A stretch of 64,000 nt of DNA from Gemmatimonadota bacterium (GTDB lineage: Bacteria; JBHIER01; G020348925). This document shows positions 49,064 to 55,022 of this stretch, piece by piece. Each line of letters starts with the position of its first letter. Positions within the stretch are counted from its first letter, which is position 1. Under the pieces are notes generated by a model, which saw nothing but the letters and a program-made list of their open reading frames with translations, was not told the origin of the DNA and made no database searches. The stretch lies in assembly GCA_020348925.1 (NCBI GenBank), contig CP070758.1, positions 2,371,688 to 2,435,687 on the forward strand. Reading direction: 5' to 3'. The translations under genes and the position numbers were made by a program.

Positions 49064-49591
49064 ATGGCGAAAGCTCCAGAAAAGATTTACAGAGAGGCCT
49101 CGGGCAGAGTTTGGGAAACGATGGGAGCTTTGGAAGCTCTCGGGATTGCCATTTATAACGAACAAGCGGCTTACGATTTTTACCGTAACCTCGAACATAC
49201 AATCGAGAACGAGAGCGGTAAAAATAAGTTCAAATTTCTGGCAGAGGATGAACAGCGACACCGCCGGCTATTAGAGGAGCAGTACGAAAAAGAGAGCGAC
49301 GGTCAAAAATTCGTTTACGATTCGGGCCGGGCAAAGACGGTCGATGTCACTGTCGATAGTCAAGCGAGCGCCGTTGATGCCGTTGATCTGGCCCTTGAGG
49401 CTGAGAAAGCCGCTCATGAGTTTTACAAACAGGCAGCCGAAAAGACAAACGATGAGGAAGGGAGACGCATGTTCGAGCGTCTGGCGGAGGATGAGGAGAA
49501 CCATTACGAGACACTCCGCGCAGAACGAGAGGCACTCTTGGGCGGACCATACTGGTTCAGTGCGGACGAGCACAGGATGATGGAAAGTTAA
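49064..49591 (+). CDS. Ferritin-like (rubrerythrin-family, no rubredoxin domain) di-iron protein
   Basis: Duplicated E…FY…ExxH (AEDEQRH; AEDEENH). RBS upstream of ATG 49064. Confidence 0.85.
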   Translation: MAKAPEKIYREASGRVWETMGALEALGIAIYNEQAAYDFYRNLEHTIENESGKNKFKFLAEDEQRHRRLLEEQYEKESDGQKFVYDSGRAKTVDVTVDSQASAVDAVDLALEAEKAAHEFYKQAAEKTNDEEGRRMFERLAEDEENHYETLRAEREALLGGPYWFSADEHRMMES

Positions 49592-49628: not shown

Positions 49629-50138
49629 ATGGCAGTGGATTCCGGTTTGACGTCATTAGAGGTTTTAGGCATCGCGATTCAGTCGGAGATTGAGGCGGCG
49701 AAACTTTACGAGAGGATGGAGAAGAGGGTTCGAAATATCGATCTGAAGGAGAAATTGGAATTCCTCAAGGGAGAGGAGGAGAAGCATCGGTCGATCTTCG
49801 AAGATATCCACCGGAAGAGATATCCGGATGTGGAGCTGAAACTGCCAGAGAAATCGATGGTGCCCATGATGGACGTTGCTCTGACGAAAGAGATGACCCT
49901 TAAAGAGCTTTTCGAAGTGGCCATGAAGGCTGAAAAAATTTCGGAGGAATTTTATACGGATCTGGCGAGAAAATCGAAAGACGCATCCGGTACTTCAATG
50001 CTCAACTATCTCAGCGGTATAGAACGGGGACATTACAATCTTCTCAAGAACGAATATGATATGGTGGTTACGTTTCCGGCCTATGCTGAGACGGAGGAGT
50101 TCTTGATGGGTGAGAGGCTGACGCACGTCGGACCATAG
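49629..50138 (+). CDS. Ferritin-like di-iron protein
   Basis: IQSEIEAAKLY…EEEKH and MKAEKISEEFY…ERGH. RBS AGGAGG. Confidence 0.85.
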   Translation: MAVDSGLTSLEVLGIAIQSEIEAAKLYERMEKRVRNIDLKEKLEFLKGEEEKHRSIFEDIHRKRYPDVELKLPEKSMVPMMDVALTKEMTLKELFEVAMKAEKISEEFYTDLARKSKDASGTSMLNYLSGIERGHYNLLKNEYDMVVTFPAYAETEEFLMGERLTHVGP

Positions 50139-50162
50139 TTGAGAAAGGGGGAACGTCAGAAA

Positions 50163-50825
50163 ATGGCATTTCTTCAGGATAAAGACAAAAAGGTTATTCA
50201 GGATCGGCTTAAGGATCTGGTCGATCCTGTGAAATTGATCAATTTCACCCAGGAGTTGGAGTGCCAGTTCTGCCGGGAGACGAGGCAGCTTGTGACCGAG
50301 CTCGCTGCGCTGTCGGACAAGTTGGAATTGGAGGTCTACAATTTTCAGATCGACAAAGAGAAAGCGGACCAGTATAAGGTCGACAAGGTCCCGGCCATAG
50401 TGATCGAAGGGGCGAAGGACTATGGTGTGAGGTATTACGGGATACCCTCCGGATACGAGTTCGCATCTCTTCTGGAAACAATCCTGGCAATATCGCAGGG
50501 TGCATCGGGCCTGTCCGAGGAGAGCAAGGAAAAACTCCGTACGCTCGATCAAGAACTTCATATACAGGTCTTTGTCACACCCACCTGACCGTACTGTCCC
50601 TCGGCCGTAGTTACGGCTCACAAGCTGGCCATTGAAAGTGATTTCATTGTGGCTGATATGGTGGAAAGTACTGAATTTCCCCAACTGGCCATCAGATACA
50701 ATGTGCGCGGTGTCCCTCGGATTGTCGTCAACGAGGAGACTCAGATTGAAGGCGCTTTGACGGAGCAAAACTTTGTGGACGAGATCCTGAAGGCCGCGCG
50801 GAAGAAGACTTCAAAAGAACAATAG
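50163..50825 (+). CDS. Protein disulfide oxidoreductase (AhpF-N/PDO family), selenoprotein with UPYC motif
   Basis: First Trx fold has CQFC. In-frame TGA at 50586-50588 occupies the first Cys position of VFVTPT-[C]PYC. The frame then continues 78 codons (…YNVRGVPRIVVNE…EGAL.EQNFVDEIL) to TAG 50823-50825. Confidence 0.9.
50603..50618 (+). promoter_or_regulatory. Putative bacterial SECIS hairpin for the PDO UGA
   Basis: GGCCGT-AGTT-ACGGCT stem-loop starting 14 nt after the TGA, with G in the loop. Confidence 0.7.
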
Positions 50826-50857
50826 AGGAAAGGTATCACAGAGAGGTGAAAAGCAAA

Positions 50858-51022
50858 ATGAACTTCGTGGTCGTATTGGTAATTTTTCTGGCGTATGTGT
50901 TTCTCATGGGGTACGTTCTCCCCAAATTGGGCGTTTCTACCTGAATATCAAATGTCTGCAGCGTTTCGGGGGAACGCGAAAATAAGACCGATGATGAGAG
51001 AACATCACCGAACTTAGAGTAA
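50858..51022 (+). CDS. Small membrane-anchored putative selenoprotein (54 aa, UxxxxC)
   Basis: RBS GAGAGGTG and ATG 50858. Sequence MNFVVVLVIFLAYVFLMGYVLPKLGVST-TGA(50942)-ISNVCSVSGERENKTDDERTSPNLE-TAA. The read-through product fills the gap exactly up to the rubrerythrin RBS. Confidence 0.65.
50961..50977 (+). promoter_or_regulatory. Putative bacterial SECIS hairpin for the small-protein UGA
   Basis: GCGTTTC-GGG-GGAACGC stem-loop 16 nt after the TGA, with a G-rich loop. Confidence 0.55.
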
Positions 51023-51036
51023 GAGGAGGTTTCGTT

Positions 51037-51540
51037 GTGAAGAAAATGACGGAGCAAAATCTGAGAGCTGCTTTTGCGGGAGAAAGTCAGGCCCACATGC
51101 GGTATCAGATTTTTGCCGATAAGGCGGAAGAGGAAAGAAAGCCAAATGTGGCTCGGCTCTTCCGGGCCATCTCCTTCGCCGAGCGGGTTCATGACACGAA
51201 CCACTTCAAGACCTTCGGCGATCTGGCCAACACGGCCTCCAATCTCCAGATGGCTATAGACGGAGAGACTTTTGAGGTCGATGAGATGTATCCGGCCTAC
51301 GACGCTGTGGCCACATTGCAGAATGAGAAGGGGGCCGAATCGAGCATTCGCTTCGCTTTGGAGGCAGAGAAGATCCACGCGGCCATGTATCAAACGGCCA
51401 AGCAGGCCGTGGCAGCGGGCCAGGACGTGGATCTCGGCGCGGTTCAGATATGTGGAGTATGCGGCTACTCGACTGAGGGGAATGCCCCGGACACATGTCC
51501 GATCTGTGGTGCTCCGAAGGGGAAGTTTCGCAGTTTCTGA
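51037..51540 (+). CDS. rbr: Rubrerythrin
   Basis: TEQNLRAAFAGESQA, AERVH, GETFE..EMYP and AEKIH. C-terminal rubredoxin CGVCGY…CPICG. Confidence 0.95.
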   Translation: MKKMTEQNLRAAFAGESQAHMRYQIFADKAEEERKPNVARLFRAISFAERVHDTNHFKTFGDLANTASNLQMAIDGETFEVDEMYPAYDAVATLQNEKGAESSIRFALEAEKIHAAMYQTAKQAVAAGQDVDLGAVQICGVCGYSTEGNAPDTCPICGAPKGKFRSF

Positions 51541-51618
51541 GAAAGAAATCTCAACCTCTTGGGGCTCCGTCAGAGAACCGAACCAAAAGATGATGCCCAA
51601 CGATCCGCTTTTTGAAGG

Positions 51619-53010
51619 GTGCAATCCATCGTGAGAACGTCCACATCGATCGCTGTTTTTTTTCTCGGGGCCGTCTCCCTTGCCCCGGTATTTGCCCAGG
51701 AGAGCGCGAGGGAAACGTATCCCTTTTTCCCGTCGTTGATCAATACTTCGTCTGGAAACCCGGTGGCCTCGAAACGATTTATGGACCCGGCACTATGTCA
51801 GGGTTGTCACGGAGAGATCTTCGATCAATGGCAGGGATCGATGCATTCCTTTGCCTTTCCCGATCCGGTATTCCAGGCTCTGTGGAGACTGGCCTCTGAG
51901 GAGACGGGAGGTCTGACGGACATCCTCTGTGCCGGGTGCCACACGGCCATCGGCACGGTGAGCGAAGAGGTGGTCTTTGAGGGTGGCGAGTTTCGGGTCA
52001 GCGAGATCGCGCGAAAGGGGGTTCAGTGCGATCTGTGCCACAGTATCAGCGCCTCCAGCTTTTTGAAGACGCCCACGCATTTGCCGCAAAATGCCTCCAT
52101 CATTGTCGATCCCGGAGTGGTGAAGCGGGGTCCTTACGATGACTCTGTGTCCCCTTTTCATGAATGCGCCTATTCAGAATTGCACACAACGTCAGAATTT
52201 TGTGGGAATTGTCACAATGTTTTCCATCCGGTGACGAATTTCCACATTGAAAACACTTACAGTGAATGGAAATTTTCCGTGTATGCCCAGAAAGGTATTC
52301 AGTGTCAGGATTGCCACATGATGCCGGTGGAGAAAGCCATCGAAGTGGCTCGGACGCTCGAAAAGCCGAAAAATCCTGGGAAGGCTTCCATCATGGGACC
52401 GGAGCGGGATCAGGTCTATACCCATGAATTTGTTGGAGCAAATTATACGGTCACCTCACTCCTTGGCTCGGATCGGCATGCAGAGATTGCCCGGGAACGG
52501 TTGAAGGGCGCAGCGGAAGTTGAAATTCTTGCGCCGGAGTCAGCGCAAAAGGGAGGTTTGGTCACAGTCAAGGTGAAAGTGACCAATGTGGGGGCAGGTC
52601 ACAATTTGCCGACGAGCTTGACGGAAGTGCGACAGATGTGGCTGGATGTCTCGGTTAAGGATGCTTCAGGAGTCGAAATATTCAGGTCCGGGGCTTTGGA
52701 CGCTGCAGGAAATATCGACGAGGAAGCTGTGATATTCAATGCCCACGCAGTCACTCAGGATGGGCATCATACTGTGAGGCCCTGGGAGATTGCGCGGTTC
52801 GAGTACAATCGCACCATTCCCCCCAAGGGTTCGGCCAGGGAAAAATACAGCTTCCTAGTCCCCCACAACGCCCATGGACCATTGGCAGTTGAAGCTACCC
52901 TGCGATATCGCTCATATCCTCAATCGATGGCGGACATGTTGTTGGGGGATGAGGCGCCGGTGTTGCCGGTTGTGGACATGGCTCGAAAAGAGGTGCAGAT
53001 CGTCATCTGA
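51619..53010 (+). CDS. Periplasmic multiheme cytochrome c (c554-like, 5 CxxCH) with C-terminal beta domain
   Basis: Signal peptide (VFA-Q). Heme motifs CQGCH, CAGCH, CDLCH, CGNCH and CQDCH, plus WQGSMH and GAGHNLPT. Confidence 0.88.
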   Translation: MQSIVRTSTSIAVFFLGAVSLAPVFAQESARETYPFFPSLINTSSGNPVASKRFMDPALCQGCHGEIFDQWQGSMHSFAFPDPVFQALWRLASEETGGLTDILCAGCHTAIGTVSEEVVFEGGEFRVSEIARKGVQCDLCHSISASSFLKTPTHLPQNASIIVDPGVVKRGPYDDSVSPFHECAYSELHTTSEFCGNCHNVFHPVTNFHIENTYSEWKFSVYAQKGIQCQDCHMMPVEKAIEVARTLEKPKNPGKASIMGPERDQVYTHEFVGANYTVTSLLGSDRHAEIARERLKGAAEVEILAPESAQKGGLVTVKVKVTNVGAGHNLPTSLTEVRQMWLDVSVKDASGVEIFRSGALDAAGNIDEEAVIFNAHAVTQDGHHTVRPWEIARFEYNRTIPPKGSAREKYSFLVPHNAHGPLAVEATLRYRSYPQSMADMLLGDEAPVLPVVDMARKEVQIVI

Positions 53011-53510: not shown

Positions 53511-55022
53511 ATGGCAAAGAAGAAAAAAAATCTGACGACCGCTTTTGGAATTCCGGTGGGTGATGACCAGAACAGCCAAACCGCCGGTGACCGAGGGCCG
53601 GTTCTGATGCAGGACGTTCACCTGCTGGAGAAGCTGGCCCATTTCGACCGAGAGCGCATCCCGGAACGCGTGGTGCATGCCAAGGGTGCTGGTGCGGGCG
53701 GTTATTTCGAGGTGACCGCCGACGTGACAAAGTATACCAAGGCCAAGTTCTTTTCCGACATCGGCAAGCGCACGGAGATCTTCGCCCGCTTTTCAACGGT
53801 GGGTGGAGAGAAGGGTTCTGCGGATGCCGCGCGCGATCCCAGGGGGTTCGCCGTCAAGTTTTATACCGAGGAGGGCAACTACGACTTTGTGGGCAACAAC
53901 ACGCCGGTGTTCTTCATTCGTGACCCGCTCAAGTTCCCCGACTTCATCCACACCCAGAAGCGGCACCCGGCCACAAATCTCCCGGATCCGGATATGTTCT
54001 GGGATTTTCTGTCCCTCACCCCGGAATCGATCCACCAGGTGACCATCCTCTTCTCCGACCGGGGGACGCCTGCCACCTACCGCCACATGAACGGCTACTC
54101 CAGTCACACGTTCAAGTGGTACAACAAGAAAGGAGAGTCCTTCTGGGTCCAGTATCATTTCAAGACCGACCAGGGTATCAAGAACCTTACCCGGGAGGAG
54201 GCGACGCGCATCTCAGGGGAGGATCCGAATAACGCCACCCGGGACCTGTACGAGGCCATCGAGCGGGGCGAGTATCCCTCCTGGACACTCGAAATGCAGA
54301 TCATGACGCAGGAGCAGGCAAAAGACTACCGTTTCGACATTTTTGACATCACTAAGGTCTGGCCTCATGGAGACGTTCCGCCCATCAAAGTGGGTCGTCT
54401 GGTACTGAATCGCAATCCGGTCAATTACTTCGCAGAAGTGGAGCAAGCCGCCTTCTGTCCGGGGAATCTGGTGCCGGGCATCGCCGCCTCGCCGGATAAG
54501 ATGCTTCAGGCCCGGCTCTTCTCCTATCACGACACTCACATCCACCGTCTGGGACCCAACTATCACCTGCTTCCTGTGAACGCGCCCAAGAACGCGCCGG
54601 AGAGCAGTTACCAGCGTGACGGCTTCATGCGGACCGACGTCAACGGCGGCGGCGGACCCAATTACTGGCCGAATAGCTTCGGGGGACCGGAACCAGACCC
54701 GGGTGCTCTGGAACCACCCTTCGAGGTCTCCGGACATGCGGCCCGTCATCCTTACACCCATCCCAACGACGATTTCGTCCAGGCCGGGGATCTGTATCAC
54801 AAGGTGATGACGGACGAGGATCGCGATCACCTTGTAGGCAACATTGTGGATCACCTGGGTGGAGCGCAGAGGCGCATTCAAGTGCGTCAGACAGCCCTCT
54901 TCCATAAGGCCGACCCCGATTACGGTCGCCGCGTGGCCGAGGGATTGGGCCTGGACGTGAAGGAGGTCGAGCGTCTGGCCGAAATGTCCCAGGAGGACCG
55001 GGCTGAAACAACATCACAATAA
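53511..55022 (+). CDS. katA: Monofunctional heme catalase
   Basis: [40 protein letters not shown] and proximal RLFSYHDTH. Confidence 0.97.

Follow-up and report, generated by a model that had tools for sequence, protein, structure and literature searches.

The window analysed here is a stretch of 64,000 nucleotides from a Gemmatimonadota bacterium (contig CP070758.1 of assembly GCA_020348925.1, positions 2,371,688 to 2,435,687 of the forward strand). At positions 50858-51022 of this window, on the + strand, lies a very small gene with an in-frame TGA at codon 29 which, when read through, specifies 54 amino acids. The coordinates given below are those of the window, and the features of the small gene and the two genes that adjoin it lie on the same strand. 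Comparison with homologues makes it very probable that this small gene is real and that its UGA-29 encodes selenocysteine (Sec). By its alignments, the predicted protein is a member of a widespread, unannotated bacterial family, in which an N-terminal transmembrane helix is followed by the motif L-P-[KR]-[LMF]-G-[VI]-x-T-U-[ML]-S-x-x-C and then by either a short polar tail or a fused thioredoxin.

Translation of the small gene starts at the ATG in 50858-50860, which stands 9 nt downstream of a ribosome-binding site read from the sequence (GAGGTG, 50843-50848); the same arrangement, gagaggtga...ATG, is seen in a family relative (genome G001). The frame reads M-N-F-V-V-V-L-V-I-F-L-A-Y-V-F-L-M-G-Y-V-L-P-K-L-G-V-S-T, then TGA, I-S-N-V-C and a polar tail. 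Its coding sequence, TAA included, is delimited by translation, by profile matches and by two alignments of family members (A1 and A3, described below). Codons 3-21 (50864-50920) form the single predicted transmembrane helix, with a Kyte-Doolittle mean of 2.84 over 19 residues, and a hydrophobic stretch of this kind occurs in 41 of 41 aligned members. The conserved motif of the family, here L-P-K-L-G-V-S-T-U-I-S-N-V-C, covers codons 21-34 (50918-50959). Within it are the TGA (50942-50944), read as Sec from the conservation of TGA or Cys at the site, and the TGC of codon 34 (50957-50959), a candidate resolving Cys on account of the conservation of Cys five residues after the Sec (Cys+5), which gives a U-x4-C arrangement. 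A hairpin resembling a selenocysteine insertion sequence (SECIS) follows at 50961-50977: a 7-bp stem closed by a GGG loop (GCGUUUC-GGG-GGAACGC), beginning 16 nt after the TGA, with a loop that opens 26 nt from the U of that codon. The gene ends with the TAA at 51020-51022, after which GAGGAGG comes directly, then the GTG start of a rubrerythrin gene at 51037.

An earlier reading of this DNA, made without database searches (the sequence-only reading), had picked out the ribosome-binding site, the ATG, a helix of about 20 residues, the TGA at codon 29 and the Cys five residues further on, and all of these are present. It had also described a TAA adjoining the ribosome-binding site of the rubrerythrin gene and a preceding gene that is itself UGA-recoded, and both descriptions hold (see below). 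The 7-bp hairpin with a G-rich loop that it noted 16 nt past the TGA is recovered by folding and, taken alone, goes only modestly beyond chance, with a z-score of -2.1 and 3.5% of 200 dinucleotide shuffles giving an equally good structure. The signal that stands far above chance is that of the family: a conserved TGA, a conserved motif downstream of it and hairpins that keep the register at about 100 loci.

Homologues, predicted read-through and the recoding signal

The sequence-only reading had looked to homologues for TGA or Cys at position 29, conservation past the TGA and a co-varying hairpin, to their genomes for the Sec machinery, and to gene calls for truncation at the TGA. This is the pattern described in this section, an ending in TAA appearing only in one weak, partial match.

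When 61 genomes were searched with the 54-residue protein (U entered as C), five other genomes matched, each with one in-frame TGA at the equivalent place and the same motif downstream. A profile of the six members (alignment A1) was used for wider genome searches. In the window's own phylum, represented in the collection by just two genomes, both were positive; so were 12 of the 14 genomes of a second phylum, each match containing one TGA, 4 of the 7 of a third, and the single genome of a fourth. A domain-wide sample of 401 genomes gave 48 with a match at E up to 0.001, from many bacterial families. The TGA lies inside 42 of these matches and five break off at profile position 28, just short of the site; the remaining one (G182) is the weak and partial match that contains TAA. 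From these searches, 41 non-redundant members were extracted and aligned (A3). P22, G25, T28 and U29 are invariant among them, and the conservation of L21 is 90% or more.

A separate scan, limited to one genome per species and based on the peptide pattern [IV]LPKLGIPT derived from an alignment of Cys forms, yielded 70 confirmed loci. The site could be placed by pattern search in 67 of them, where it is a TGA in 62 and a Cys codon in 5. The groups named for these loci, which come almost entirely from metagenome-assembled genomes (MAGs), are Obscuribacterales/Melainabacteria, Acidobacteriota, Desulfobacterales, Syntrophobacteraceae, Geobacteraceae, Pirellulaceae, Chloroflexota, KSB1, Spirochaetes, Cytophagia/Bacteroidota, Thermodesulfovibrionia, Gammaproteobacteria and CSSED10-310. 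One of the Cys forms (L082, locus 4582 region), in a MAG labelled Chloroflexota, is nearly identical to Obscuribacterales members and retains a SECIS-like hairpin, CUGCUC-GGUU-GAGCAG; either Sec seems to have been replaced by Cys recently, or sequences seem to have been mixed up in binning.

In the protein database, at least 1320 relatives are found at E up to 0.001. That gene callers would cut the protein at the TGA, as predicted, is borne out by the 120 matches listed, 55 of which are products of 28-31 amino acids that end just before the site. Sixty relatives were fetched: 50 have Cys at the U site and the same motif downstream, 6 have W, R, G or S there, and 4 end right before it. The names recorded for the database relatives are all "hypothetical protein", with no precomputed Pfam domain, and the ESM Atlas returned one unnamed "hypothetical protein" cluster (score 0.88) together with single-helix structural look-alikes. 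Among the relatives with W, G, R or S at the Sec site (P0023, P0041, P0051, P0053, P0055, P0072, P0128 and P0129), some look as if they had been called under codes in which TGA is Trp or Gly, and others could be true sense-codon replacements; two further entries of a similar kind also look like calls under other genetic codes. Three longer database forms are apparently mis-called upstream extensions or alternative-code calls, and they bring no new fusion partner.

Conservation does not end at the TGA. The segment that follows it has the form [LM]-S-x-x-C: among 105 unique proteins, Ser is found at +2 in 72 and Cys at +5 in 95, and a Cys is present within +11 in 99. Beyond this segment, the 94 short members have a tail with a median length of 23 residues, in which K, E, S, Q and D abound and hydrophobic residues are scarce, and which by its composition looks disordered. 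Other members do not stop there, and in 10 of the 41 genomes a thioredoxin domain (WCxPC) continues in the same frame. The ten fusions have ten different linkers of 42-104 amino acids, and in four of them no Met lies between U and WCxPC; one fusion scores 98.7 bits on the thioredoxin model TIGR01068 (cut-off 96.8). The three members of the 41-genome set that lack Cys+5 are all thioredoxin fusions. In the phylum of genome G023 (loci L037-L048; candidate division CSSED10-310 for one), the module is the N-terminus of a thioredoxin in 10 of 12 carriers, and gene calls in public databases would there begin the thioredoxin too far downstream or lack its membrane anchor and its Sec.

The hairpin was scored sequence by sequence against shuffles, since an alignment of the DNA flanking the UGA (MAFFT, A2) is ungapped and leaves the hairpins out of register. 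In 36 of the 41 members, the loop of the best hairpin after the UGA starts 19-26 nt from the U, and in 35 it begins with G. The commonest loops are GGUC (12 members), GGA (7) and GGC (5); the SECIS of E. coli fdhF has an apical loop similar to GGUC. The mean z-score is -1.88 against 200 dinucleotide shuffles, with 21 of the 41 hairpins in the best 5%. Under a combined criterion (5 bp or more in the stem, G as the first base of the loop, and 19-26 nt between the UGA and the loop), 70 of 100 unique Sec-form loci qualify, where shuffles lead one to expect 2.4, with 44 distinct stems; only one of the five Cys forms (L082) does so. A search of 50100-51600 with Rfam gave no match, only noise below threshold.

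The genome that holds the window is equipped for Sec: selB was found at 396.5 bits, tRNA-Sec at 65.8 bits and selA, which adjoins selB, at 598.8 bits. Across the sample, selA is present in 178 of the 401 genomes, that is, in 47 of the 48 carriers of the small gene and in 131 of the 353 non-carriers, the sole negative carrier being the doubtful G182. The one-sided Fisher p of 1.7e-17 for this association is overstated by kinship, because related genomes are not independent. Seen from the other side, the family is present in 47 of the 178 selA-positive genomes, in a sample that is not random.

Neighbouring genes in the window and elsewhere

The gene directly upstream of the small gene encodes a protein disulfide oxidoreductase (PDO; 50163-50825) that scores 295.8 bits against TIGR02187, an already known selenoprotein family whose cut-off is 185. 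It has its own in-frame TGA at 50586-50588, in the motif T-U-P-Y-C, and a gap of 32 nt separates it from the small gene. A standard listing of open reading frames breaks this Sec-PDO gene into pieces of 149 and 58 amino acids. The hairpin after its UGA is GGCCGU-AGUU-ACGGCU, with a loop that does not start with G, and the 65-nt fold is ordinary (z +0.46). Downstream, 14 nt after the stop of the small gene, the rubrerythrin gene (51037-51540; Pfam Rubrerythrin plus a rubredoxin-like domain) has TGA as its stop codon (51538-51540), so that outside the recoded sites TGA serves in this window as a normal stop. No terminator-like site was called on the + strand between the genes of the operon, and no run of T follows the hairpin of the small gene.

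A library scan extended the picture on both sides. Two rubrerythrin-family genes lie upstream of the Sec-PDO gene (49064-49591 and 49629-50138). After the rubrerythrin gene come a c554-like multihaem cytochrome with a signal peptide (51619-53010), which reaches 61.9 bits on the ExtKL (seleno)cytochrome model, far under the cut-off of 250, and then a catalase (53511-55022). The segment 49064-55022 is a dense oxidative-stress cluster. The host genome measures 5.04 Mb in a single contig, and the DNA runs that contain most of the window are labelled as sediment metagenomes.

Outside the window, clusters of neighbouring genes were counted by locus over 108 loci, the scanned clusters being named by library match. 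The most frequent are rhodanese-linked operons (rhodanese/YgaP-TM, MBL-rhodanese, CoA-disulfide-reductase-rhodanese), found upstream on the same strand at 24 loci, and ArsR-type regulators, at 22. An alpha/beta hydrolase lies downstream at 14 loci and an ECF sigma factor just downstream at 11, with a zf-HC2 anti-sigma factor at 9; the 12 loci counted for thioredoxin are the in-frame fusions, one of them twice (L119 repeats L042). RND pumps follow (10 loci), then the TauE sulfite exporter and ACR3/SBF (8 each), 4Fe-4S proteins (6) and c554-like cytochromes (5); FeoB-like genes (7) and ArsA-like and ArsD-like genes (5 each) were identified by eye. In twenty genomes of other phyla, taken with wider flanks, the nearest neighbours, mostly on the same strand, were scanned as well. 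They include a thioredoxin together with an OsmC-like gene (L147), an OsmC-like gene (L164), a Zn-ribbon TrxC-type thioredoxin with ArsR (L148), ArsR (L156), MarR (L150), a GDSL lipase (L154), a class-V aminotransferase (L159), ZnuA (L161), and SecG with Amt (L162).

A thioredoxin-fold domain is either fused to the small protein or encoded within about 1 kb in 19 of 41 genomes. The recurrent neighbours include OsmC-type peroxidases, rubrerythrin, catalase, ArsR, MarR and the pair of ECF sigma and zf-HC2 anti-sigma factors. The sequence-only reading had suggested that the small protein could link the Sec-PDO or rubrerythrin to the membrane; a PDO adjoins the small gene in only 3 of the 41 genomes, and rubrerythrin does so only in the window's own family.

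Two arrangements recur within lineages. In MAGs of the Desulfobacterales type (L133-L136, L139 and similar loci), the small gene lies a few tens of nucleotides upstream of an ECF sigma gene, itself followed by a 90-residue zf-HC2 anti-sigma factor with no obvious membrane segment; this arrangement may be a unit for redox sensing that either includes the small protein or acts upon it. In Obscuribacterales (L078, L093-L101 and others), the order is rhodanese-YgaP-TM, TauE, MBL-rhodanese, CoA-disulfide-reductase-rhodanese, the small selenoprotein and an alpha/beta hydrolase, with ArsR, ACR3 and ArsA- and ArsD-looking genes nearby, and it resembles sulfide/persulfide detoxification operons.

Proposed function and alternative readings

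The interpretation that we favour overall, and regard as likely, is that the small gene encodes a 54-residue single-pass membrane selenoprotein whose U29 and Cys34 form a redox centre recycled by a thioredoxin-fold partner. Its mechanistic part, the recycling by such a partner, is suggested by the thioredoxin fusions and neighbours, and we hold it to be probable with somewhat less assurance. UGA-29 would be decoded by SelB and tRNA-Sec under the direction of the hairpin at 50961-50977. The selenol of U29, placed a few residues from the membrane surface, would meet an oxidant or an electrophile there, and Cys34 would resolve the product, giving a selenenylsulfide. A thioredoxin-fold reductase would then regenerate the centre, the candidates being the fused thioredoxin, the adjacent Trx or TrxC or, in the window, the Sec-PDO.

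The substrates of such a centre would most likely be peroxides, possibly lipid or organic hydroperoxides, in operons of oxidative or thiol stress. As a substrate class, peroxide or organic hydroperoxide is put forward tentatively, as the leading candidate among several. It is preferred because of the content of the window's operon, of the OsmC, MarR and ZAS-type neighbours, and of the lipase and hydrolase neighbours at other loci. The U-x4-C arrangement and the thioredoxin fusions and neighbours would fit the functional class of thioredoxin-dependent thiol and selenol peroxidases; no homology to Prx, GPx or OsmC was found. A likeness to the PxxxTxxC motif of Prx, in which the P at -7 would correspond, was set aside as a coincidence without weight, the T being at -1 and not at -3.

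We lean towards a topology in which the C-terminus is inside. Over the 105 proteins, the 15 residues after the helix contain 169 Lys and Arg in total, versus 55 in the N-terminal flanks, and the Trx and TrxC neighbours look cytoplasmic.

Several observations weigh against this interpretation or narrow it. In two genomes the neighbours look like lipoprotein-type TlpA, and one PDO has an apparent lipobox, which would put the C-terminus outside. Cys+5 is missing in 10 of the 105 members, and the window's own hairpin, by itself, is only moderately unusual. The neighbourhoods are heterogeneous, ranging from rhodanese/persulfide-dioxygenase-like genes (24 of 108 loci) to ars genes, RND, FeoB, ZnuA and SecG/Amt, so that no single partner or substrate is implied. 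Moreover, the counts of neighbours are inflated by kinship, since many of them come from Obscuribacterales (about 25 loci).

In another reading, the protein is a genuine selenoprotein whose U-x4-C is a soft-ligand site for arsenite, a heavy metal, selenium or sulfane sulfur, the protein acting as a membrane carrier or sensor that serves transporters and detoxification enzymes. Chemically, As(III) and Hg(II) are bound strongly by a selenol paired with a thiol. The neighbours that would suit such a role are those with ArsR-family regulators (22 of the 108 loci), the rhodanese and TauE operons directly upstream on the same strand (24), ACR3/SBF (8), the ArsA- and ArsD-looking genes recognised by eye (5 each), RND (10) and FeoB (7), besides ZnuA and a cysteine-desulfurase-type gene in single genomes. 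Most of these counts, however, come from one lineage, Obscuribacterales, and the window's operon is made up of rubrerythrins, PDO and catalase, with no gene for metal handling or sulfur transfer. The thioredoxin fusions and the Trx, TrxC, PDO and OsmC neighbours indicate redox turnover. We regard the soft-ligand site as unlikely, though a serious competitor of the redox centre.

It has also to be considered that the short reading frame could be mainly regulatory, Se-dependent read-through of UGA-29 versus termination tuning the translation of the downstream gene by coupling. The gene is very short, its TAA adjoins the ribosome-binding site of the rubrerythrin gene, 14 nt from the GTG start, and at 11 loci an ECF sigma gene starts at a median of 58 nt from the motif. 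Conservation is nevertheless seen at the level of the protein (the helix, the invariant P and G and T, and Cys+5), and Cys forms, which require no recoding, keep the whole motif. The in-frame thioredoxin fusions also speak against such a device, as does the great diversity of the downstream genes among lineages, many of them being encoded on the other strand; a mainly regulatory role is very improbable.

Even less credible is that UGA-29 is a true stop, the gene making a 28-residue hydrophobic peptide and the conservation downstream belonging to an RNA element such as a terminator or stabiliser: although 55 of the 120 database matches listed are products of 28-31 amino acids and the hairpin by itself can be read as an RNA element, amino-acid conservation persists after the TGA while the stems vary (44 distinct), Cys-codon homologues read straight on, ten thioredoxins are fused in frame (four of them without a Met between U and WCxPC), selA is present in every credible carrier, and the hairpin is followed by no T run and by no terminator called on the + strand. 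Decoding of the TGA as Trp or Gly under another genetic code is ruled out, since TGA terminates the rubrerythrin gene of the same operon.

Comparison with known selenoproteins

Neither the window's protein nor the 41 members gave a match for the small module in Pfam-A or NCBIfam 20.0, within the limited sensitivity of so short and hydrophobic a query; the best noise match, to an unrelated membrane family, had an E-value of 0.0094. In the available part of a 2026 review of prokaryotic selenoproteins (PMC13188914), Table 1, with 119 families, lists no single-helix family with U-x4-C, and the word "transmembrane" is absent from the passages searched. The consulted passages of the deep-Sep paper describe hypothetical families DG, DW and DF from Desulfosediminicola and Desulfosarcina, and none of the NCBIfam models cited for these three in the table of PMC13188914 matches the small family. 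The BSepDB paper mentions 111 families, and neither "membrane" nor "transmembrane" occurs in its accessible passages. Full-text searches for small or single-pass membrane selenoproteins of bacteria brought up only eukaryotic work, on SELENOK and SELENOS. The sequence-only reading had recognised no named selenoprotein family, which agrees with Pfam, NCBIfam 20.0 and the table of the review. It is quite likely that the family is uncatalogued, the families of Haft and Tolstoy (2025) having been compared through the consulted table of PMC13188914 and the NCBIfam models.

The small family has much in common with the bacterial genes that carry a SECIS in their coding region: an in-frame UGA, a stem-loop within about 20 nt, a G in the apical loop, Cys homologues, a redox-type motif with a nearby Cys, and carriers that have selA, selB and tRNA-Sec. 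It differs from them by its U-x4-C, which is not the usual UxxC or CxxU. Compared with the 119 catalogued families, as far as the consulted table describes them, its architecture is unlisted: about 50-70 amino acids, one membrane helix and no thioredoxin fold. TsoA (NF045695, LULAXC) is, in the available description, a selenoprotein with a similar U-L-x-x-C-like motif, from which its name derives. The TsoA model, however, has 144 positions, and its Cys is at +4, while that of the small family is at +5. At its 170-bit cut-off NF045695 found none of the 41 members, and in the window's own genome it had no match at E up to 10; membership of the TsoA family is ruled out by these absent matches and by the position of the Cys.

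With the thioredoxin-fold selenoproteins, that is, the PDO of TIGR02187 (a homologue of the N-terminal domain of AhpF) and the Sec-thioredoxins, the small protein shares an operon, the use of Sec and a thiol-disulfide chemistry, and some members of its family are physically fused to a thioredoxin of the TIGR01068 type. The small module itself, in contrast, has no thioredoxin fold, and it is likely a client or partner of these proteins rather than a homologue.

If the protein is a membrane selenoprotein, as we favour, it would be, within the literature searched, the first bacterial micro-selenoprotein known to cross the membrane once, and a new component of the operons for oxidative, thiol and sulfide stress in anaerobes and uncultured lineages. 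Counts of bacterial selenoproteomes, which stand at 111-119 families in the consulted parts of recent inventories, would be missing a common family. Annotation would have to be corrected in many genomes, there being at least 1320 related database entries, many of 28-31 amino acids, and the thioredoxin genes of one candidate phylum would turn out to encode N-terminally extended, membrane-anchored selenoproteins. With about 25 soluble residues, the protein would also be within reach of chemical synthesis and could serve as a very small model of how a selenol and a thiol react on the surface of a membrane.

The nearest analogy in design, without homology, is with the eukaryotic SELENOK and SELENOS, selenoproteins that span the ER membrane once and are likewise small, with one transmembrane helix and a polar tail. 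A selenenylsulfide between Sec and Cys has been proposed for SELENOS, whose Sec is residue 188 of 189 (PMC3628699, in the part consulted). The Sec of these proteins adjoins the C-terminus, whereas that of the small protein comes 7 residues after the helix; their SECIS is of the eukaryotic kind, in the 3'-UTR, and there is no sequence relation and no Pfam match. A more daring proposal, which we regard as possible yet doubtful, is that the family is a minimal membrane-tethered selenoperoxidase for lipid or organic hydroperoxides, recycled by thioredoxin, and one of the most widely distributed families of bacterial selenoproteins, overlooked because its gene has fewer than 70 codons and is cut at codon 28. 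It would then, speculatively, correspond in function to GPx4 in bacteria while being built like SELENOK and SELENOS.

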